64,000 nucleotides of DNA, from the IMG/VR virus record IMGVR_UViG_3300032243_001145, positions 1-64,000 of that record; one strand, 5' to 3'. The stretch comes from a virus. Lineage: Duplodnaviria; Caudoviricetes. Shown one piece after another: positions 3 to 64,000 of the stretch. Within the stretch, counting starts at the first letter, position 1, and the number at the start of each line of letters is the position of its first letter. Below the pieces are notes generated by a model. It was given only the letters and a program-made list of their open reading frames with translations, ran no database searches and was not told the origin of the DNA. A program made the position numbers and the translations under genes.

Positions 3-38
3 AAAAACAAAATCAAGAAATTGGTTTCTGCTTTCTAA
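3..38 (+). CDS. 3' end of an upstream gene (partial, ...KNKIKKLVSAF*)
   Basis: Open frame from the window edge to TAA at 36-38. Confidence 0.35.
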   Translation, partial: KNKIKKLVSAF

Positions 39-43
39 ATAAA

Positions 44-72
44 TAAATCCTGAGCAAGATTTAAAACTGCTC
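44..72 (+). ncRNA. small H-type pseudoknot motif, copy 1
   Basis: TAAATC/GATTTA stem, 8-nt loop CTGAGCAA, loop GAGCA pairs with downstream TGCTC; second copy at 24318-24344. Confidence 0.6.
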
Positions 73-76
73 GCAA

Positions 77-153
77 GATTCCATAGATCAATTGGTTAGA
101 TCGCTACCCTGTCACGGTAGAGGCTACGGGTTCAAGTCCCGTTGGAATCGCCA
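77..153 (+). tRNA. tRNA-Asp(GTC)
   Basis: Acceptor GATTCCA/TGGAATC, anticodon arm CTACC-CTGTCAC-GGTAG, T-loop TTCAAGT, encoded CCA. Confidence 0.95.
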
Positions 154-194
154 GCGTGTTGACTTGACAAAGCTGGCTTTGCCCGCAGTATTGA

Positions 195-239
195 GGGTGT
201 GATATTTATCATACGAGAGGCCAAAGAATTCCCTGGAAT
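195..239 (+). repeat. tripartite GGG-N14-TACG-N16/17-CCT motif, copy 1 of 5
   Basis: GGG at 195, TACG at 212, CCTG at 232; same spacing at 1850, 4163, 4983 and 5039. Confidence 0.6.
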
Positions 240-250
240 ATATGGACAGA

Positions 251-2769: not shown

Positions 2770-3002
2770 TGGCAAGTTTCTTAGAAAACGAAAACGAAAT
2801 GATAATTGACGCAATCTATTCTGAGATTGGAGAACAACTCGTTGAAGATTGGGTGAACTCTAATTTAGATGAGGGACAACTCTATGCAGATTGGTGTTTT
2901 GCAGATATGTCTAATAGCAATTACATCAAGGGCAGGTTCAATCAGTTTCATAATTTAAGTCCAACAGATAATTATTACCTACAATGGGATGAGGAAGCAT
3001 AA
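2769..3002 (+). CDS. hypothetical acidic protein
   Basis: 77 aa, TAATG-coupled. Confidence 0.8.
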   Translation: MASFLENENEMIIDAIYSEIGEQLVEDWVNSNLDEGQLYADWCFADMSNSNYIKGRFNQFHNLSPTDNYYLQWDEEA

Positions 3003-3163
3003 TGCTAGGCTATGAGATGACAGATATTAATGAGATGTGTAAATCAATTGAATTGGCACGTAGAGTTGTTACAAAAGAATCTGTAATTAAAGGTTTGGAC
3101 AAAGCTGAAAGTTTTTTGCAAGGACTATGGGCAGAAGGGTATTTCGATCATGCACAGTCATAA
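3002..3163 (+). CDS. hypothetical 53-aa protein (MLGYEMTD...LWAEGYF)
   Basis: TAATG-coupled; not in the ORF track. Confidence 0.7.
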   Translation: MLGYEMTDINEMCKSIELARRVVTKESVIKGLDKAESFLQGLWAEGYFDHAQS

Positions 3164-13746: not shown

Positions 13747-13890
13747 TTATTTTGAGCCTTTTGCAGTTTGGCCCCTATAGCCCGTCTTTTTTTTATTCAT
13801 CGATCCAGGTTTCTTGTATCCAGAGCCGTTTGGAGTTGCTGCAATTCTTTGCTCTAAAGCCTTTTTAATCTTATCATGGTGCTTTCCCAT
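13747..13890 (-). CDS. 47-aa basic microprotein (MGKHHDKIKK...)
   Basis: TAATG-coupled. Confidence 0.65.
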   Translation of the reverse strand: MGKHHDKIKKALEQRIAATPNGSGYKKPGSMNKKKTGYRGQTAKGSK

Positions 13891-24107: not shown

Positions 24108-24296
24108 TTACTTAACATTATCTGTTTTGTAAAAACCATTACCTTTAAATTGTATACCAAATGGAGTAAAGTGTCTTGTCATTACCGACTCACATTCAAC
24201 GCATGTGTATCCTGGATCTTTATCCATAATTGATCTATGAGTTGACATTGTTGGATGTGCATCATCATATGAGCACTTGTATTCGTATACTGGCAT
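24108..24296 (-). CDS. FmdB-family Zn-ribbon protein
   Basis: MPVYEYKC...CVEC...FKGNGFYKTD. Confidence 0.9.
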   Translation of the reverse strand: MPVYEYKCSYDDAHPTMSTHRSIMDKDPGYTCVECESVMTRHFTPFGIQFKGNGFYKTDNVK

Positions 24297-24317: not shown

Positions 24318-24344
24318 AGGCAGTTTTTAGACGTACCCAGGTCT
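24318..24344 (-). ncRNA. small H-type pseudoknot motif, copy 2
   Basis: AGAC/GTCT stem, loop CTGGGTAC, GGGTA pairs with TGCCT. Confidence 0.6.
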
Positions 24345-24349
24345 CAATG

Positions 24350-24766
24350 TTATTTGATCTTTAGAATTTTAGGTTGTTTTTCTTTAGGTAGATTTCTAAC
24401 TACACGAATGTGAAGCATGCCGTCTTTTAGTTCTACATTTGAAACTTCCATGTATTCACTTAATTCAAAAATTCTTGTAAACTTACGTGCAGCAATGCCC
24501 TTATGAACAACTTCGGCATCTACTACCTCTTTAATTTCACCTGTAATCCATAGACTTCCGTCCTCAATTGATACAGTTAAATCTTCTCTTGTGAATCCAG
24601 CAACAGCCAGCGATAGCTGGTAGTTGTCTTCATCTAATTTTAATAAATCATACGGCGGAAATGCTGTATTATTTACTTTACTTAAACTATTAAATCGCTC
24701 CAACTCTCGGTTGAAACCAATAAAAAATGGATCTTTAAAAAGATCCATAGCGAAATTTGTTACCAT
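24350..24766 (-). CDS. small heat-shock protein (Hsp20/IbpA-like)
   Basis: FPPYDL, AVAGF, HKGIAARKFTRIFEL, LKDGML. Confidence 0.95.
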   Translation of the reverse strand: MVTNFAMDLFKDPFFIGFNRELERFNSLSKVNNTAFPPYDLLKLDEDNYQLSLAVAGFTREDLTVSIEDGSLWITGEIKEVVDAEVVHKGIAARKFTRIFELSEYMEVSNVELKDGMLHIRVVRNLPKEKQPKILKIK

Positions 24767-54745: not shown

Positions 54746-55206
54746 TAAACTTCTTCCAGTGTTATAGAAACATCCCAAAATTCTTGAGGTATTATTTGAT
54801 CATTCATCTTTACATTTCTTTTTTTCATAGTAAAGGTAGCAGAATTAAATGACATTAACATTATTTTTTCTCTTTCAGAAACACCGTTTGGTGAAAACTT
54901 TACTTTAACAACGCCTTGGCCAACCGTTTCATAAAAATTTTTAATATCCATTGCTCCCCATTGAAGATCTACCGTCATTAATGAATTACTTGGTAAATCT
55001 GTCCAGCTAACAGCTAAAGTACTTTTGTCAGCAATAAATACTTTTCTAAGTGTTCCATTAGACATTCTTTGAGATTTTTCAATTCTTGTTGTATCTAGGG
55101 TTGCACTTGATCTATTGTGCTCGCTAAGTGCCTGCCAAGATGTAACAACTCCCACAGTTTTTTCAAAAAATATAAGTGACCCTACTGGTAAAATTATGGC
55201 TGCCAT
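54745..55206 (-). CDS. distal tail protein (Dit-like)
   Basis: Directly after TMP; RMSNGTLR, WDVSITLEEV. Confidence 0.7.
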   Translation of the reverse strand: MAAIILPVGSLIFFEKTVGVVTSWQALSEHNRSSATLDTTRIEKSQRMSNGTLRKVFIADKSTLAVSWTDLPSNSLMTVDLQWGAMDIKNFYETVGQGVVKVKFSPNGVSEREKIMLMSFNSATFTMKKRNVKMNDQIIPQEFWDVSITLEEV

Positions 55207-58200
55207 TATTTAATACCTACCGTCATTGTTGGCCCAGTCATTTTAGCGGTACGAGCATCAAGAGTTTTTATTGCTGTAATTGTTTTTTGTGTAACCATGC
55301 TAGACAATTGCTCCAAATCTCCATCATATCCATTAATATTATTTGTAATATTATACACGCCTCCACTCATTGTAGCATTGTTAGCGTTTGGATTAAAAGG
55401 ATTCATGTTGGCTGGGATTACAGCTTCATTTTTATGAAGCATAGCAAGCATGTTAGCTGGAACGTTATTTATTCCAGTTTGAAATTTAGGTATTGCAAGA
55501 CCGCCATTTGAAAACTTTTGAAGAATAGAATCTGGGTAGGCATTATAATTAAATGTCATAAAGTCTTTTGTATCTCTTCTGTTCATTTTGCCATTTTTAA
55601 ATCCCGTATCTCCATTACGAGTCAAAAAGAATTTTTCTATTGTATTTTGCAACATCTCAAATACAGTTGGAATATTAGTTCCAGGCAAGTCTAGTTTTTG
55701 AGCAGTGGTGCCAATTCCACCATTTGGATAATAATAAAAGGGTTCTCCGTATGGTCTATCAATTACATTCTTAACGGTTGCATCTGCCACTTTGTTTCCT
55801 GCAACGCTAGTTACTGGAAAATCTTCTAATTCAAATATCTCATCGCCAGATGACATTGCTTTTGCCCAAGTCTTACCGCCCCATTTAAACATATTATATA
55901 CTCCATTAGAGGCGGCAATAGAAATTCCACTTCTTGTTCTTTGCTTGGGTATTTGGTTTGTAGCAGTTTGCAATGTTCCAGAGTTAAATTCTTTAAATGG
56001 AATAAGAGGGTATGCATACTCAATATGATCTATTACTGTTTGTTTAGGATTATAAAATTTTTCTCCTTCTGGCCAGTAATTTGGAATTGTTGGCTTGTCC
56101 CATGGGTCTTCTTGCGTGTCGTAGTTATTCCCGCCAGGCTGATCTGTGTTTTTATCTGTGTTTTTGTCGGGATTAAATGGAAGAATAATCATTCCATCAT
56201 CTTGCCCTGGTAACTTGGAGTAGTACTCGTTTGTATTATTTGGATCTGTGCCAAATGGTTTATCTGGATTATATTTTGTCATTCTTTGATGTAATTTATT
56301 ATTTATATCAAAGGTATATTTTGGGTGACCCCAATCAGATTTATTTATTGCGGAGTAAAATTCTTTAAGATCTGTTGATTTACTATTTGTAAGTGCTGAG
56401 ATTATGTCTTCGTATCCGTGATTAGGAAATTTTAATGTTTGAAGAACTGCATCTAGTCCTTGATCCCATGATGTATATGCTTGAACTCCAGTTCCAGTTT
56501 GTGCGTTGACTGTATTTACTTTTGTAGATCCTGGCATTTCTAATGTTGTATTTAATGGATTATACAAAGCTCTATTTTGCCAATGTCCACCCTCTTGCAT
56601 TGCCCATGCCTGAATTCCACCCAATAGGTTTTCGGTTGGTGTTCCACCTAAAGCTGTAATTAATGCAACTCCAAAATCATGCGGGGTTCTGATTTCAAGT
56701 GCTTTATTTTTTACTGATGGCTTACCAGATATCTTGAGGCCTAAAATTTTTGCATAATCTGTATTTAAAAGATCTGGCATTGCTGTTTGAGCATTTTCAT
56801 CAAATTTATTTGACTTTAATTGAAAGTTGGACAAATCTGCAACCATTGCTTTTGCTTTTGCTGTATCGCCAAAAAGATCTCCTGGTGTAACTCCAAAATA
56901 ATCAGCTAGTCCTATGTCAGTATTTTTATTTTTAAATCCTTGAAGATAAGCTGCAAATCTAATATTGCTATCTTGAGGATGACTATCATCAGTATGTGGA
57001 TCAATGTCAGTATTTGTTTTAGAAAGATCTGGCGCAGCTTTTGTGTAATGTGCTTTTAAATATTTTGTAACTGATTCTGATTTTACAATATTGTTCATGT
57101 AGCCAGCATTAAACATTTCTGACATTATCTGCCCAGATAGGAGATCGGCATTTATCTCGTTTAACATATCGTAATACTGTTTTCCATCTCCTTCGTTTTT
57201 TAAAGGTTTACCAAATTTATCTTTAAACAACTTAGAACTAATTCGATCATTTCCAAAAATGCCACTTTCTTTTAATCTTGTCACCATTGAATGTCCAAAT
57301 TCGTGATTAAGTATGCTAAGCAAACTCATCTTAGATTCGTCATTAGTTAAAATTTGTTTATTTATATACTCAGAATATGTTTTAAAATCAAAATTTTTTT
57401 TAGCTCCTGGAATAGGTTGATATTTTAAATGTTGATTGTTTTTATCTGGAAGTATGATATTCGGTAAATTTGCTTGTGTGCTAGTAGGCTGCACGTAAAG
57501 CATTGTTCCAACTGGGTCGTTAATATCACGCCACGAAAATCCAGGCTCTCCGCCCATCATAGATAGCCAGTTTCTTGGATCTGTAACTTCTAAATCTGTA
57601 ACTATAGGAGTTTCAAGCAAACTTGGCTTACCATTCATTTTAAATAAATTTTGATATTTAGCGCCATAATAAGTATTAAGGAGCCCAACCCATGAGTGCA
57701 TAAATTCAGAAACTTTTTTTTCGCTATCCGTAAATTTTCCAGATAGAACATCTTTGGTTTGGTCTATCGTGTCATTGCCACCAACATTTTTATATACACT
57801 TTCATGATATGGATTATATATATCTAATCTATTTATATTAGGTACTAGTCCGCCTTCAGCATACTTACGTTTTTTCTTACCAAAATAATGACTATAGATG
57901 TCTGGTATAGACGATGGAATATTAGCAAGTAGTGCTTCTGTCATTCCAGGCAAATCTTTCATTCCAGCTTGAGCCCATATTTTATTCCATGGAAGAATTT
58001 TAGGATAAAGATTTAGAGCAGACATTGCTGCTCTTCCCATTATTTTTCCGTATGCGCCAGCTTTATTTCCTTTTTGATATTCAAGTATTGCTTTTTGATA
58101 CATGTCTTCATCTTCTGCACTCATCCAATTAGTTTTGCCAAATGCTGAGCCTGCTAAATACTTACCGCTATTTATTGTAGATTGAAGCATTTCGTAACCT

Positions 58201-61200
58201 AATGATCCTAGGTCTTGCATTCCTCTGCCAAGCAATCCAAATGGTCCGCCCATTGATTCACCTGTAGATGTTGCTGTTGTATCTACTTGATTTGATAAAA
58301 AGTTATTTACTATTCCGCCATCTGCAAATTTTTGTGCGTTAAGATTGTCAAAATGCTGTATTCCATATTTTCTTACAGCTTTTTCTTTAATTACATATTC
58401 ACCATTTGAAAGTAATGCTGGAATAGAATCAGATGTTCCTGTTCCTGGGCCAACTACCTTGCCTCCAGTTTCATATGATTTAACCTTTTCTCCTCCGCCA
58501 GGAAGTGGACTAAACCATCTTCCAACTACTGCTTTGTCTCTTGTTACACTTCCATTATGATGAAAAATAAGATCTCCAACTACATAAGAAGGCTTATTAT
58601 TATTTTTTTGAAGAAAAAGCATTTGTGCTTGTAAAAGATTTATAAATTCTCTATTTGACATTCCGCTTAATGGAAGTATGAACTCAGCTAATGACCCAGG
58701 CTGTTCATATGGCATTGACATAAATTGTTTTTCGGTTATTTTTGCGCCTGCTGCATTAGAATATTCATAAGGATTATTTTTTGTTCCTGCGCCAGTTCTT
58801 TTTCCTGCAAGGTTTGAAGGATCTGCAACTGCGCCTGCTGTAGCAACTTGAGCACCACCTACTTTTTTACTATTAATATATAAATCACCATTTACAACTA
58901 ATCCAGCTTTAATGAGAGAAGTTTCAAGTGCACTCATTAGCCCTGTTGCTGCATCTACTCCAGGTTTTCCAGTGGCAGGATCTACTGGGTAAGGAGTTAA
59001 ATTTACTTTTATTGCAGTTGCTGCTTCGGTAATTGCTGCAAGCATTGAGGTTGCTTCAGGTGATGTTTTCCATTTTGCTAAATCATCTTTATGAGCATCA
59101 ATAGCAGTTCTGTAATTGGCCATTGCTGTAATTAATTTTGTTATTGCACTTTCTTCATCATCAATCTTTTTTGATACGTCTCCAAATTTTTCAGAAGCAT
59201 AGGCAGCTGCATCTGCTACATCTTGTTGCTTCTTTTGTATTAATTCAATTTGTTTTAAAAGAGGTGCATTTTTTAAAGTAGTTGCATCTTCAATTGCTTT
59301 AACTTGTGCATTGTACTGTAAATCACTTTGTAATCCTTGCATGTCCAAGCTTGCTTGTTGTGCATCTGCTGTATTACCTGTAGCAAGTGCGGCTTGATAT
59401 CTTGCTTGAGCTTTTGCAATCTCTCTTCCAATATCTCCTTCTTTTTTAGCAGCATCTAAAGCTTTTATTCTTGCGTCTGCTAATTTATTATTAGCATCAA
59501 TTTGTTTTTGTAGAGCAGATAATTTATCTCTATCTGATATTTGTTGAGCTACAGATTGGCCTTTCATTGCTTTTGTATATTTTTCTTGAAGCTGCTTTAA
59601 TCCATCTAAATGCTTATATTGTTTTTGTAAGAATCCATTTTTTGCAACGCTTTCAATAGATTTAGTTATTGCAATATTAAAACGATATACCTGATCTGTT
59701 TGAGCTGCCGATAATCCACGCATATCTAAAGTAAATCCTTTTGCAATTAATCTTTGTTTTTGCATAAGAGATATATTTGTATCATGCAAATCAGCAATTT
59801 CACGCAATACTGGATTTGTTTTTTCCATTTCCTTGAGTGTAGCTTGACTTACAGTTTTTTGATAACGTTGTGCTTTTGATATTTTTTCTATAGCAGCAAC
59901 TTCTGCATCTAACATAATTACATTTTTATCTGCAGTGCTGATGAATGTAGGCTTTGTTTTATCTTTTTTTCTCTTTTTAAGTGCTTCTGCTTGCTGTTCC
60001 TCAATTGCAGTTAATATAGCAGAGTTAGCTGTAATAAAAGCATTTGCTTGTTCTGTTCCATCTCTACCCTCATGAACTGTTTTGTTATAAAGTTTTATGG
60101 CTGCAGCTGCTGCATCTACAGATGTTTTAATCTTATTAAATCCTTCTGATGAAACTGTGTATAAGCTAGCTGATGATGAAAAATTCTTTGAAACAGTATA
60201 CATTGCATAAATCTTTTTTGTTGCTTCTTCCGAACTCATTCCCATGCCAATAAACATTGTCTTTAATCTTTCGGCTAATGCAATTTGATCATCTGCGCTT
60301 GTTTTATCAATTAATTTTATTTGATCTGCAAAATCAGTTTTTACGGTTTTCTTTAATTTTTTAAATTCTGCAATTGTTATTTTTAAAGGGGTGCCTGATC
60401 CAGTCATACTCTGATAGAGTAATTGATTTTGTTGTCTTACGGCTTTTGCTGTTTCTACAGATTCTTTTAATGATTTATTAAAGTCTCTAAATCTTAAGCC
60501 TGCTTTTTTTGCAGCCTCTTCTGTCATTCCGTAGCCTAATGCATTTAGGCGCATGCTTTCTGTATTTGCATCCCACCTATTTTTAGCAAATAATAATCCG
60601 CCTATAACAACTGCAGATATTAAATTAAATCTTGTTAAACCTAAGCCTACCTTAGATATCATTGAACCAAATTTAGTTCCACTTGATTCTGCTTTTGCTA
60701 AAGCAGTACCAAATTTTGTCATTTCTCCTGGATTTTTATTTGAGAATGCTAATGGCGTTGTTGTTTTTCCCAAGCCAACTTTTGTTAACCCTCTGCCAAT
60801 TATGCCCTTTGTGCTCCCACCTAATGATGGACTTAGCATCATTGGCAACATATACCCAGCTTGTTGAACTATCATTGATAATAATGGGTTTGTAATTTTT
60901 GAAGCTATCATATTTGCAATTGCTGAAATGCCAAGGCCTGCAACTATTTGTCCACCAATACCGTAGTTATTAGGAACTATTCCTCCTGCGTTTCTTGGAA
61001 CAAATAGTTCTGGTCCTTTTTCTCCAACAATGTAAGGTTGACCAGCATTAACTGGTCCGCCTGCAGCTCTTCCTTCAAGACTAAATATAAGCTTTTTTAA
61101 AGTTTCTGTTAATGGAGTATCTTTTCTGGATTCCCAATTTAAATATTTTGTTTTTAATATTTCTTTATCTATTGGAGAAAGCTGTTTTAATACAAATTTG

Positions 61201-64000
61201 TCTCCAATCATATCTGATGCGGCAGATCTTATAACGGCATCTAATGCATCTGGTTCAATACCACGCTTTAAAGTTCCATCTGCCATGTGCACGTAGCCAT
61301 AAGGTTTTTCTTTTGCTAATGCTGCTGCAAATTTATCATAAAATAATTTTTGAGTATATTTTCTTAAACCTGTGCTTGCAAATAAAGTTTCGGCCATTTT
61401 AATAGATAATGAATTTACACCCCATGGAGCTGACTCAAAAGTGCTTGGCTTGGGTTCCCCTGTTGGTCCATATCCAGCACCAATTCTTTTCATTGCTTTT
61501 CCTTTAAGAACATTTCCAAGCAATCCTCCAATTCCAAATTGATTTGTGGGTGATCCATTAAATAATCTTTGAGCAAATTTTCCTGAAATTTCTCCGCCAG
61601 AATTTCTTCTAATAATTTTAAGTGCGTGACTTACTCCGCTAGAAGTAGTAAGTAATGTGGCAAGATTTGTGCCTCTAGCCCAAGCAGGAACTCTAGAACC
61701 TATTGTTCTATTTTCACTAACCCAAGTTAATCTTCCATCTCTTCTTTTAACTATTTGACCTTTTTGAGATGATCCTGATATTGACCCTGATATTAATCCA
61801 CGTCGTATTGCATCGTCTTTAGTTAAAACTTCTTTTGCTCTAGTAGTAAATATTTGAGAAATTGCAGAATATAGATTTCTTCTTCCGCCTGCTTTTGATG
61901 AATCAATTTTTATTCCACGCAGGGCTGGTGCAAATATTTCTTTAGCTAATTGCTCAAAACCAAATGGATTTCCTTTTCCACCAATCATCTTGCCTGCATA
62001 TTCTGGACTTTCTAATTTAGCAATTAATTCTTGAAGTGCAACTGAATTTCTTCTTTGTGCTTGCTCAAAATCGCCGCCTAATGTTACTGCAGCTTCGTTC
62101 ATTAAACTACTTGGATCTATTCCAGCGTCTAGGGTTTTTCTTATTAAATTTGCTATCTGACTTCCATAAAGACCGCTACCATTAGAATTTACTCCAAGAT
62201 TTAATTCTCTTGGTAATAATAATGCCATGCCACTAAGATCTTCTGTAATATGTGTTCTTTGTAATGCTAATTTTTTATTTTCTAATAATCCACCACGTAT
62301 ATGCATTCCACTGCCTGAAGTATTTCCTACTCCGCCATTTAATTGGTACATTAAAGGCATATTTTTTTGAGCAAAGCTTGCTGGGATTACGGCTTCTCCA
62401 GGGGTTAATACTACTGGTACCTGACCGCCTTCTTGTGCATAATAAGATTTGCTTCCAAGTATATTAGTTATAAGAGGCAAATGCTTTTGAGTAGCAGCTT
62501 TATTAATTACAAATGATCCAGGCTCGGCTGTTGTGTGATAGGTATCTGTGTTTCCAGTCCCTGGAACAATTCCACCTTTGTTAAGTCTAGGTTTTGTTGT
62601 TTCTATATTATATCCAGCTCCAGAAGTTCTTACTCCTGCAAGAGCTCTTGCAATTCTATCCACCATTTCTCTTGTAGGGCCTTTATGAAACATTTCTTTC
62701 ATATTTGCTTTTCCAGTTACTGGATCAACTACTGGCTGTGAAGTTAAAGGAACAGTTGTTAAATTAGCTGTTCTTCCCATACTTGTTGCTGTCATTGCCG
62801 CTGTTTCTGCAAGCATTGCTTCTACTGTTGCATTTAATGAAATAATTTTTGCTCTTGCTGCTTCAACAGTTATTTTATTTGCTTGAACTTCAGCTACAAT
62901 TGCTTGTACTTCTTGTGCTGCCAATTCTGTTATTTGACTAAACTCTGGCAGCAATGCTTGATATGAATCAGATAAACTTGCTGTAATAGTTCCTGTTGCC
63001 ATAACTTCTTTTTTAAGTATTGCAAGTTCTTCTTCAGACTGCATTGAAATTGCAGCTGTCATTGAATGCCATTTAGCAGCTTCAGATGCAACAATTCCTG
63101 TTGATACTCCACCTATTGATGTAAGCCCTGGAATCTTTGGAAGATCTTGATTCATATAAGCTTGTGGATTTCTACCAACTCTTATATTTACTGGCTTTGC
63201 TCCTGGCACTGTTCCAAATATTGTTCCTGCTTGTGGATTTCCTGATGGAATTAGATGAGACATATCTCTAGAATATGGAGATCCAACTAGTGGGTGATCT
63301 TTATCTACAACTCTTCCGCTTCCAGGTGTCCCTGCCATAATGACTCCACCTGCAACTGTTGAAACTGCTGGCTGAACTGAAACTTTTGCTGCATTTGCTT
63401 TTGTTTCTAAATTTATAAAAGATTCAGCTAATGTGTTTACTGCATTTGATAAAACAATTGTTGCTTCTGAATCTGAATAAAAAGATGTTGCTAAACCTTT
63501 TGCAGCTGCATCAGCAGCCATAATTTCAGGAGTTAATAGTTTAAACCCTTGTCCGCCTTTTGCAAGTTGTCTTAAATGAAATATTCCTTTTACAACATAA
63601 CCAATAAAGTTACCCATAACACCAGCCATCATAATAAGTGGCCCAGCAATTGCTGTTAATCCACCCAGAACATTAAGGAATGTTTTAACTGGTCCTGGAA
63701 GATGTTGAAAAAATTTAACAATTGCGTCTACAACTTTTAATACCTTTGTACTTATTTTTAAGAACTGCTCGCCAGTTGAAGCTAGGTCTGCTTGAACTGA
63801 AGCTAAAGCTCTTTTAAATTGACCAGACGCAGACTCTGTCATTAATTTTAATTCTCGTTCTGATATGCTTGCAAGGTCTGAAGCACTTGCTTTCATAAGG
63901 TCCATTACTTGAAGTGTTTGAGAGCCTTGCTTGCCTAAGTTTTCAAACAATGCAGACATTCTTGCAAACTGGAATTTTCCAAATAGCTGTTCAATTGCTC
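55206..64000 (-). CDS. tape measure protein, 5'-truncated by the window, with peptidase and muramidase-like cargo
   Basis: Frame open to the window edge; TM cluster, GPGTGTSDSIPALLSNGEYV and GEKGPELFVP repeats, HEFGH, NPLNTT. Confidence 0.92.
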   Translation of the reverse strand, partial: AIEQLFGKFQFARMSALFENLGKQGSQTLQVMDLMKASASDLASISERELKLMTESASGQFKRALASVQADLASTGEQFLKISTKVLKVVDAIVKFFQHLPGPVKTFLNVLGGLTAIAGPLIMMAGVMGNFIGYVVKGIFHLRQLAKGGQGFKLLTPEIMAADAAAKGLATSFYSDSEATIVLSNAVNTLAESFINLETKANAAKVSVQPAVSTVAGGVIMAGTPGSGRVVDKDHPLVGSPYSRDMSHLIPSGNPQAGTIFGTVPGAKPVNIRVGRNPQAYMNQDLPKIPGLTSIGGVSTGIVASEAAKWHSMTAAISMQSEEELAILKKEVMATGTITASLSDSYQALLPEFSQITELAAQEVQAIVAEVQANKITVEAARAKIISLNATVEAMLAETAAMTATSMGRTANLTTVPLTSQPVVDPVTGKANMKEMFHKGPTREMVDRIARALAGVRTSGAGYNIETTKPRLNKGGIVPGTGNTDTYHTTAEPGSFVINKAATQKHLPLITNILGSKSYYAQEGGQVPVVLTPGEAVIPASFAQKNMPLMYQLNGGVGNTSGSGMHIRGGLLENKKLALQRTHITEDLSGMALLLPRELNLGVNSNGSGLYGSQIANLIRKTLDAGIDPSSLMNEAAVTLGGDFEQAQRRNSVALQELIAKLESPEYAGKMIGGKGNPFGFEQLAKEIFAPALRGIKIDSSKAGGRRNLYSAISQIFTTRAKEVLTKDDAIRRGLISGSISGSSQKGQIVKRRDGRLTWVSENRTIGSRVPAWARGTNLATLLTTSSGVSHALKIIRRNSGGEISGKFAQRLFNGSPTNQFGIGGLLGNVLKGKAMKRIGAGYGPTGEPKPSTFESAPWGVNSLSIKMAETLFASTGLRKYTQKLFYDKFAAALAKEKPYGYVHMADGTLKRGIEPDALDAVIRSAASDMIGDKFVLKQLSPIDKEILKTKYLNWESRKDTPLTETLKKLIFSLEGRAAGGPVNAGQPYIVGEKGPELFVPRNAGGIVPNNYGIGGQIVAGLGISAIANMIASKITNPLLSMIVQQAGYMLPMMLSPSLGGSTKGIIGRGLTKVGLGKTTTPLAFSNKNPGEMTKFGTALAKAESSGTKFGSMISKVGLGLTRFNLISAVVIGGLLFAKNRWDANTESMRLNALGYGMTEEAAKKAGLRFRDFNKSLKESVETAKAVRQQNQLLYQSMTGSGTPLKITIAEFKKLKKTVKTDFADQIKLIDKTSADDQIALAERLKTMFIGMGMSSEEATKKIYAMYTVSKNFSSSASLYTVSSEGFNKIKTSVDAAAAAIKLYNKTVHEGRDGTEQANAFITANSAILTAIEEQQAEALKKRKKDKTKPTFISTADKNVIMLDAEVAAIEKISKAQRYQKTVSQATLKEMEKTNPVLREIADLHDTNISLMQKQRLIAKGFTLDMRGLSAAQTDQVYRFNIAITKSIESVAKNGFLQKQYKHLDGLKQLQEKYTKAMKGQSVAQQISDRDKLSALQKQIDANNKLADARIKALDAAKKEGDIGREIAKAQARYQAALATGNTADAQQASLDMQGLQSDLQYNAQVKAIEDATTLKNAPLLKQIELIQKKQQDVADAAAYASEKFGDVSKKIDDEESAITKLITAMANYRTAIDAHKDDLAKWKTSPEATSMLAAITEAATAIKVNLTPYPVDPATGKPGVDAATGLMSALETSLIKAGLVVNGDLYINSKKVGGAQVATAGAVADPSNLAGKRTGAGTKNNPYEYSNAAGAKITEKQFMSMPYEQPGSLAEFILPLSGMSNREFINLLQAQMLFLQKNNNKPSYVVGDLIFHHNGSVTRDKAVVGRWFSPLPGGGEKVKSYETGGKVVGPGTGTSDSIPALLSNGEYVIKEKAVRKYGIQHFDNLNAQKFADGGIVNNFLSNQVDTTATSTGESMGGPFGLLGRGMQDLGSLGYEMLQSTINSGKYLAGSAFGKTNWMSAEDEDMYQKAILEYQKGNKAGAYGKIMGRAAMSALNLYPKILPWNKIWAQAGMKDLPGMTEALLANIPSSIPDIYSHYFGKKKRKYAEGGLVPNINRLDIYNPYHESVYKNVGGNDTIDQTKDVLSGKFTDSEKKVSEFMHSWVGLLNTYYGAKYQNLFKMNGKPSLLETPIVTDLEVTDPRNWLSMMGGEPGFSWRDINDPVGTMLYVQPTSTQANLPNIILPDKNNQHLKYQPIPGAKKNFDFKTYSEYINKQILTNDESKMSLLSILNHEFGHSMVTRLKESGIFGNDRISSKLFKDKFGKPLKNEGDGKQYYDMLNEINADLLSGQIMSEMFNAGYMNNIVKSESVTKYLKAHYTKAAPDLSKTNTDIDPHTDDSHPQDSNIRFAAYLQGFKNKNTDIGLADYFGVTPGDLFGDTAKAKAMVADLSNFQLKSNKFDENAQTAMPDLLNTDYAKILGLKISGKPSVKNKALEIRTPHDFGVALITALGGTPTENLLGGIQAWAMQEGGHWQNRALYNPLNTTLEMPGSTKVNTVNAQTGTGVQAYTSWDQGLDAVLQTLKFPNHGYEDIISALTNSKSTDLKEFYSAINKSDWGHPKYTFDINNKLHQRMTKYNPDKPFGTDPNNTNEYYSKLPGQDDGMIILPFNPDKNTDKNTDQPGGNNYDTQEDPWDKPTIPNYWPEGEKFYNPKQTVIDHIEYAYPLIPFKEFNSGTLQTATNQIPKQRTRSGISIAASNGVYNMFKWGGKTWAKAMSSGDEIFELEDFPVTSVAGNKVADATVKNVIDRPYGEPFYYYPNGGIGTTAQKLDLPGTNIPTVFEMLQNTIEKFFLTRNGDTGFKNGKMNRRDTKDFMTFNYNAYPDSILQKFSNGGLAIPKFQTGINNVPANMLAMLHKNEAVIPANMNPFNPNANNATMSGGVYNITNNINGYDGDLEQLSSMVTQKTITAIKTLDARTAKMTGPTMTVGIK

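Follow-up and report, generated by a model that had tools for sequence, protein, structure and literature searches.

A small RNA pseudoknot placed just past stop codons in diverse tailed phages, with a possible role at message ends

What do two short, similar elements do that lie immediately past stop codons in the genome of a tailed phage? The window analysed here is the first 64 kb (64,000 nucleotides) of an AT-rich tailed phage (IMG/VR record IMGVR_UViG_3300032243_001145; 115,319 bp for the whole virus record). The phage encodes a DnaE-type polymerase, a DnaB helicase, a primase, a terminase-like large subunit, hsp20, eight tRNAs and a 2917-aa protein resembling tape measure protein. The initial annotation, made from the sequence alone, had pointed to a recurrent small pseudoknot after two of its genes and had proposed a conserved cis RNA element acting as a nuclease block, processing signal, ribosome-recycling signal or tiny aptamer. 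The 2917-aa open reading frame (ORF; window positions 55206–63959, minus strand) showed only weak matches to tape measure families and would be unusually long for a tape measure protein. Beside it lie genes for a minor tail protein (1170 aa) and for a protein of 1030 aa that contains an endosialidase-chaperone domain.

Both sites (44–72 on the plus strand and 24318–24344 on the minus strand) had exactly the sequence and structure first described for them, including a start 5 nt past a TAA codon and the pairing between the loop and the 3′ strand. Copy 1 follows the stop (36–38, plus strand) of a 352-aa DUF932-family gene, the body of which maps to the opposite end of the record (genome positions 114176–115234). 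Its first stem (S1) is formed by TAAATC (44–49) and GATTTA (58–63), the inner four bases being the ones paired in the covariance-model alignment. The 8-nt loop CTGAGCAA (50–57) consists of the first pseudoknot loop (L1; CU, 50–51), the 5′ strand of the second stem (S2; GAGCA, 52–56) and a junction A (57). An A-rich linker (L3; AAAC, 64–67), invariant in the alignment, leads to the 3′ strand of S2, TGCTC (68–72), whose partner is 52–56. A tRNA-Asp gene (GTC; 77–153, plus strand) starts 4 nt past the motif.

Copy 1 lies inside a terminal direct repeat of 123 bp (1–123, identical to genome positions 115197–115319), and it therefore occurs twice in the assembly. The octamer GCAAGATT was found twice in this region, at window positions 54–61 (loop and S1 3′ strand) and at 73–80 (running into the 5′ end of tRNA-Asp). 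This repeat, with its units 19 nt apart, may be due to chance or to a small duplication, and relatives have a different spacer here. Directly past tRNA-Asp, window positions 154–240 contain a promoter-like element consisting of TTGACT/TTGACA, a spacer and TATTGA. In relatives that lack the tRNA (loci L033 and L044), the same promoter-like element was located directly 3′ of the pseudoknot.

Copy 2 lies on the minus strand behind the hsp20 gene (138 aa; 24350–24766, TAA stop at 24352–24350). Its S1 5′ strand AGAC (24341–24344) starts 5 nt past the stop and pairs with GTCT (24329–24332) around the 8-nt loop CTGGGTAC (24333–24340), which comprises L1 (CU), the S2 5′ strand GGGTA and a junction C. 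The A-rich linker L3 is AAAAAC (24323–24328), and the S2 3′ strand TGCCT (24318–24322) pairs with GGGTA through a helix that includes two G-U pairs. The next gene is a 62-aa zinc-ribbon-like ORF (24108–24296, minus strand), whose ATG is 21 nt past the motif.

Searching the whole record with AAAACTGC revealed a third copy outside the window, at genome positions 113723–113755 on the plus strand. It reads GGTG / CTGGGTAT / CACC / TAAGAGTAAAA / CTGCCC, so that S1 has a third unrelated sequence that still pairs, and the loop GGGTA pairs with TGCCC. A 172-aa ORF ends upstream of copy 3, which starts 10 nt past its stop; a UUCG hairpin and then an 86-aa ORF come next. The UUCG-tetraloop hairpin (genome positions 113756–113772; L287:1537–1553) adjoins the 3′ edge of copy 3, also outside the window. 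It covaries among relatives (ACCC/GGGT, TCC/GGA, TCCC/GGGA, ACACC/GGTGT), and a conserved ribosome-binding region, ACTACTAACAAAGG, is found on its 3′ side. At this site in the relatives the upstream sequence varied, while the motif stayed in one block with the UUCG hairpin, the ribosome-binding site and the gene downstream.

A covariance model was built on 142 copies, with both window copies among its training rows and copy 3 not among them. Copies 1 and 2 scored 43.6 bits (E = 7e-12) and 36.9 bits (E = 9e-10), respectively, and copy 3 scored 23.2 bits (E = 4e-5) at genome positions 113720–113758. Nothing else in the window scored above 9.6 bits, and a model scan of the genome gave these three sites and no others. 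Five complete relatives had three or four copies each at the same relative positions. With 3 copies among more than 100 genes in this genome, the pseudoknot is not a general gene-end device.

A megablast search with the flanks identified no near relatives among deposited phages. The relatives came from IMG/VR, in which 160 related loci were collected around DUF932 and hsp20 genes. The motif was kept at orthologous sites in all 160 loci, and 225 of 225 motif matches were on the gene strand, with none opposite. Compensatory changes were observed in both stems among the relatives, with S1 as CGAC/GTCG, CAAC/GTTG, AAATC/GATTT, ATTC/GAAT, TGTC/GACA, AGTC/GACT or ACAC/GTGT, and S2 as GAGCA/TGCTC, GGGTA/TGCCC, GGGTA/TACCC, AGGCA/TGCCT or GAGTA/TGCTC. 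Across 142 distinct copies, 95% of the paired cells could pair, compared with 79% in shuffles and 26–40% when the partners were slid. Changes on both sides were observed for all four S1 pairs and for three of the five S2 pairs, the S1 figures being partly built in because only copies with 3 or more S1 base pairs were chosen for the set. At loop position 4, the base and its partner were A-U in 113 copies, G-C in 28 and G-U in 1, and never A-C, while one S2 pair was U-G 48 times and never C-A. The occurrence of U-G without C-A points to a structure of the sense-strand RNA, rather than of DNA or of an antisense transcript.

A sub-variant was found after hsp20 in six loci (L089, L105, L120, L121, L138 and L150, at about positions 2915–3010). 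It has an extra hairpin of ~50 nt between the stop and the knot and a 3′ strand of AAAAGGCYC instead of AAACTGCYC, which still covaries with the loop (GAGCA/GGCTC, GGGCA/GGCCC).

The wider viral collection was scanned with a pattern that fixed only the loop and the 3′ strand and did not require S1. At least 3 paired S1 bases around the 8-nt loop were found in 128 of 148 viral matches, where ~5% would be expected by chance. In bacterial genomes the same pattern gave a paired S1 in only 24 of 122 matches, mostly from metagenome bins. This difference indicates that the pseudoknot is real and that most of the bacterial matches look like chance. The structural claim of the initial annotation, a conserved cis RNA pseudoknot just past stop codons with a preserved pairing between loop and 3′ strand, stands. 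The energies of nested folds (z-scores of −0.4 to −1.9) were uninformative, because the program cannot score a pseudoknot and returns the S2 hairpin only.

The motif is a classical H-type pseudoknot of 27–33 nt. S1 has 3–7 bp, usually 4, and a variable sequence. It is followed by an invariant CU (L1), the S2 5′ strand GRGYA, one junction base of any kind, the 3′ half of S1, an A-rich L3 of 3–10 nt (usually 6) with an invariant AAAC end, and the S2 3′ strand UGCYC. The stems would form a coaxial stack of ~9–10 bp. By analogy with known pseudoknots of this type, we infer that L1 crosses the deep groove of the 5-bp S2 and that the A-rich L3 lies across the shallow groove of S1. The base 3′ of the motif was A in 70% of copies, followed by about nine G-poor bases.

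The placement relative to the upstream gene was sharply defined. In a diverse set of 128 viral copies, the loop began less than 9 nt past the stop codon of the nearest long ORF upstream in 3 copies, at 9 nt in 19 and at 10 nt in 10, with a tail thereafter. At the 9-nt floor, a 4-bp S1 has its first pair 5 nt past the stop. Five nucleotides is the closest position at which a structure can stand to the A-site codon without being unwound, as known from frameshift spacers and the footprints of ribosomes. S1 started at a median of 10 nt past the stop, and about one fifth of copies stood at least 40 nt away from the stop of the nearest long ORF. The next start codon was at widely varying distances from the motif end (median 67 nt), with ~34% of copies ending 20–39 nt before it. 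Independent annotation gave the same picture: S1 started 6–10 nt past the annotated end of a coding sequence, in an unannotated gap, in the cultured phages S-RIM4 (a cyanophage), Labelle (Mycobacterium), ParMal1 (Paracoccus) and Molivia (Arthrobacter). In Molivia the knot stands between a single-strand-binding protein gene and a tRNA-Gly gene.

The upstream ORFs of the diverse set (n = 69) included 15 DUF932 proteins (25–92% identical to that of this phage) and 5 HSP20 proteins (33–94%). Since the motif follows these genes across such ranges of identity, the DUF932 and hsp20 placements are old and specifically conserved. Other upstream ORFs belonged to diverse or unknown families; single-strand-binding, capsid, tail chaperone and ribonucleotide reductase proteins were among them. 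Cultured carriers include T4-like (S-RIM4), T7-like (ParMal1), actinobacterial (Labelle, Molivia) and crAss-like phages. Their modes of transcription range from host RNA polymerase throughout, to the T4-like mode, to T7-like phages with their own polymerase.

A tRNA started 4–13 nt past the motif in 14 of the 128 viral copies, and none of the 128 had a tRNA ending within 40 nt upstream. Given that the loci hold only 68 tRNAs in 1 Mb, this enrichment is large and one-sided. T-runs of at least 5 within 12 nt 3′ of the motif were present in 16% of copies compared with 1.4% of control windows, and runs of at least 4 in 23% compared with 4%. Two type III hammerhead candidates adjoin the 3′ edge of the motif (L188:955–1012, plus strand, and L172:2549–2605, minus strand) and have intact CUGAUGAG and CGAAAC cores; they remain candidates because their scores of 33 and 31 bits are below the Rfam gathering score of 48.5. 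A third, similar candidate was recognised by eye in L169 (about 13773–13845, plus strand). Promoter-like sites were not clearly enriched (5 downstream, 3 upstream and 1 in shuffles), and two of the sites 3′ of motif copies were perfect sigma-70 promoters. ACCA, the 3′ end of tRNAs, was the commonest 4-mer directly 3′ of the motif (12 of 127, ~2 times the per-position expectation). In the genome studied here, copy 1 is followed by a tRNA and copy 3 by the covarying UUCG hairpin, while past copy 2 there is just the ribosome-binding region of the zinc-ribbon-like ORF. A tRNA, a hammerhead, a U-run or a promoter 3′ of the knot would each set, or make room for, a 3′ terminus of the RNA a few bases past it. 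In three loci (L170, L175 and L189), repeated TTATCCACA-like words resembling DnaA boxes were observed 3′ of motif copies, and these may mark a replication origin region.

Several known classes of element were considered and rejected. An N4-like hairpin promoter for a giant virion RNA polymerase does not fit a 2917-aa ORF that resembles tape measure protein, a covarying S2 that requires a pseudoknot, and a linker of varying length. For a sigma-70 or phage-polymerase promoter, the difficulties are that in 128 of 148 matches the variable block can pair with the 5′ flank, that the linker varies from 3 to 10 nt and that G-U is tolerated and A-C is not; for a sigma-54 promoter (TGG/TGC blocks), the spacing is wrong as read from the sequence. 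Recoding by frameshift or readthrough is contradicted by further stops and a tRNA downstream. The motif does share the compact H-type fold, short L1 and A-rich L3 of −1 frameshift pseudoknots. However, a stop codon stands where the slippery heptamer belongs, there is no overlapping −1 frame, and copy 1 is followed by a tRNA. Intrinsic (Rho-independent) terminators were rejected since a U-run is absent at the three copies and a scan returned no terminator at copy 2. Type III antitoxin RNAs (ToxI-like) do not agree with single copies 1.5 to about 25 kb apart next to DUF932, hsp20 and tRNA genes. The preQ1-I riboswitch (RF00522) gave no match, and its expected place before queuosine-related genes is taken here by a tRNA, a zinc-ribbon ORF and an 86-aa ORF, and by diverse genes in other phages.

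Each site is co-transcribed with its flanking genes and folds as a compact H-type RNA pseudoknot. What the knot does is less certain, and as a serious though still tentative possibility we favour, from sequence comparisons, a role in which the knot caps or bounds the upstream message at its 3′ end and resists nucleases. The knot would mark and protect the 3′ end of the upstream cistron, parked as near to the stop codon as the terminating ribosome permits. The message would be cut or ended a few bases 3′ of the knot, whether by RNase P where a tRNA adjoins (the arrangement of copy 1), by a hammerhead, by an endonuclease acting in the G-poor tail or by termination at a U-run. The knot, then at the 3′ terminus, would stall 3′-to-5′ exonucleases, and the upstream message (DUF932, hsp20) would be kept stable and separate from what follows. 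This function best fits the anchoring to stops, the tRNAs and hammerhead candidates directly 3′, the enrichment of U-runs, and the occurrence in phages with very different transcription systems. Promoter recognition, riboswitching and translation initiation are unlikely, given the varied polymerases and the presence of the knot before tRNAs as well as protein genes. Several observations weigh against a cap. About one third of copies lie 20–39 nt ahead of the following start codon and may serve the downstream gene instead, and at copy 3 the motif, UUCG hairpin and downstream gene stay linked while the upstream sequence varies. Only 3 copies occur among more than 100 genes in this genome, and copy 2 has no obvious end-making feature downstream. 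Furthermore, 9–11 bp is small for an exonuclease barrier unless the inferred tertiary contacts add unusual stability.

Among the other functions that the placement could suggest, a processing signal is rather unlikely. According to this explanation, a conserved endonuclease (for example RNase P, acting on a mimic of the tRNA acceptor arm) cuts between the cistrons, with no block to decay. The A that follows 70% of copies and the pyrimidines after it are consistent with such a site, as are ACCA as the commonest following 4-mer (12 of 127) and the tRNAs and hammerhead candidates that take the adjoining position; the near-invariant loop and linker bases across many host phyla also suggest a universal host factor. 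However, ACCA is found in fewer than 10% of copies, the coaxial stack of ~9–10 bp is shorter than the 12-bp acceptor/T arm, and copies followed by a tRNA or ribozyme would have no need of another signal for cutting. We give a similarly low probability to a boundary for translation, in which the knot, at the mRNA entry of the terminating ribosome, affects termination or recycling, or stops the sliding of post-termination ribosomes. The pile-up of copies exactly at a sharp 9-nt floor between stop and loop argues for it, and the architecture is compact as in luteovirus frameshift knots. Pseudoknots that stimulate frameshifting usually stand at the same spacing from the A-site codon as the first pair does here from the stop, 5 nt with a 4-bp S1. 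In a variant of this explanation, a block to sliding would uncouple the cistrons and shield a downstream tRNA or ribozyme from the ribosomal helicase. Nevertheless, the floor may reflect mere ribosome clearance, which any functional structure past an ORF would need, and about one fifth of copies stand 40 nt or more from the nearest long-ORF stop. Neither a slippery site nor an extended frame is present here, and TAA CAT TGA precedes copy 2.

A role in the 5′ leader of the downstream gene or RNA, as a 5′ stabiliser, ribosome standby site or folding insulator, is improbable. Some copies precede a complete promoter and so lie outside the downstream transcript made from it, and a translational role is inapplicable to copies before tRNAs or ribozymes. 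The broad next-start distances (median 67 nt) also disagree with a leader, although the ~34% of copies that end 20–39 nt before the next start leave room only for a ribosome-binding site, and at copy 3 the downstream elements (UUCG hairpin, ribosome-binding site and gene) accompany the motif in relatives whose upstream sequences differ. Still more improbable is a transcription element, acting in the nascent RNA as a pause, terminator or antiterminator. T-runs of at least 4 follow 23% of copies compared with 4% of controls, and the S2 3′ strand stands directly before the run in the manner of a terminator stem; but all three copies of this genome and most other family members lack a U-run, the terminator scan was empty at copy 2, and the motif occurs both in T7-like phages with their own RNA polymerase and in phages that use the host enzyme. 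The tiny aptamer named in the initial annotation, which would be a small ligand-binding riboswitch of preQ1-I-type architecture, fared worst and is hardly credible. A ~30-nt H-type pseudoknot with an A-rich tail and highly conserved loop bases is indeed preQ1-I-like. But the preQ1-I model was unmatched and no Rfam family matched at E values up to 10, the motif stands past stop codons, its downstream features (tRNAs, ribozyme candidates and diverse small genes) are unrelated, and there are several copies per genome.

A broader form of the cap proposal, which is more doubtful, would make the knot a universal 27–33 nt “message end cap” in tailed phages of many host phyla. Here a triplex-type pseudoknot at the mRNA entry of the terminating ribosome would become, after a downstream cut (tRNA/RNase P, hammerhead or endonuclease), a 3′ terminus that blocks bacterial 3′ exonucleases. 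It would be the equivalent, in viruses of prokaryotes, of the triple helix of MALAT1 with mascRNA, or of viral xrRNAs. If fold and placement reflect a function, few structured RNA elements of tailed phages would be smaller or more widely shared than this knot, whose loops are conserved nearly base for base across T4-like, T7-like, actinobacterial and crAss-like phages. It would provide a handle on how phages punctuate and stabilise polycistronic messages, and could explain the positions of tRNAs and hammerhead candidates in phage genomes. As a very short, portable module it could also serve to stabilise or insulate messages in engineered bacteria.

The initial annotation could not assign the element to a named family, and no family matched it here. 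In a scan of the window with Rfam 15 only tRNAs passed the gathering score, and at E values up to 10 no relevant match was found for copy 2 or for a stretch containing copy 1 and part of copy 3. A full-text literature search returned no description of the pseudoknot; the 10,006 candidate viral RNAs of PMC10690425 (2023) lay outside this comparison and may include it. We regard it as a structured cis element at message ends that is built as a pseudoknot. A covariance model of it merits a place in public catalogues, and annotators now leave such gaps blank.

The nearest likeness in shape is to the luteovirus-type −1 frameshift knots (BWYV, PEMV-1 and ScYLV; ~28 nt). They have the same size and H-type architecture, the same 2-nt L1 starting with C, a junction of 0–1 nt and an A-rich L3, and they likewise stand ~5–9 nt past the codon in the ribosomal A site. 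Unlike them, the phage element has no slippery heptamer or overlapping frame, stands past a stop codon, may be followed by a tRNA, and occurs in DNA phages as several dispersed copies per genome. The preQ1-I riboswitch (RF00522) is also a ~30-nt H-type pseudoknot with an A-rich 3′ linker, whereas the phage S2 is longer, its location is past stops, and it has neither a link to queuosine genes nor a match to the Rfam model. The xrRNA and coremin elements of RNA viruses are small pseudoknotted folds too, and a stop to a processive nuclease or ribosome is proposed in both cases. However, those elements block the 5′-to-3′ nuclease Xrn1 with larger ring-like folds, there is no sequence or model match, and the resistance of the phage knot is putative.

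In position and proposed role, the closest parallels lie elsewhere. MALAT1/MEN-beta with mascRNA likewise has an A-rich structure directly upstream of a tRNA-type RNase P site, so that after a cut the structure would form the new 3′ terminus; 14 of the 128 phage copies precede a tRNA. The analogy would be functional only, as MALAT1/MEN-beta are eukaryotic nuclear lncRNAs with a U-A-U triple helix, whereas the phage element is a pseudoknot mostly without a tRNA after it. REP hairpins, terminator hairpins and the 3′ hairpins that RNase III leaves on T7 early mRNAs have the same post-stop or intercistronic, sense-strand and repeated placement. Those hairpins block 3′ exonucleases and define the ends of cistrons, which is the same job proposed here for the pseudoknot. 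Compared to them, the phage element, with its putative function, is a sequence-conserved pseudoknot rather than a plain hairpin, and it is spread over phages of many host phyla instead of a single host genome.
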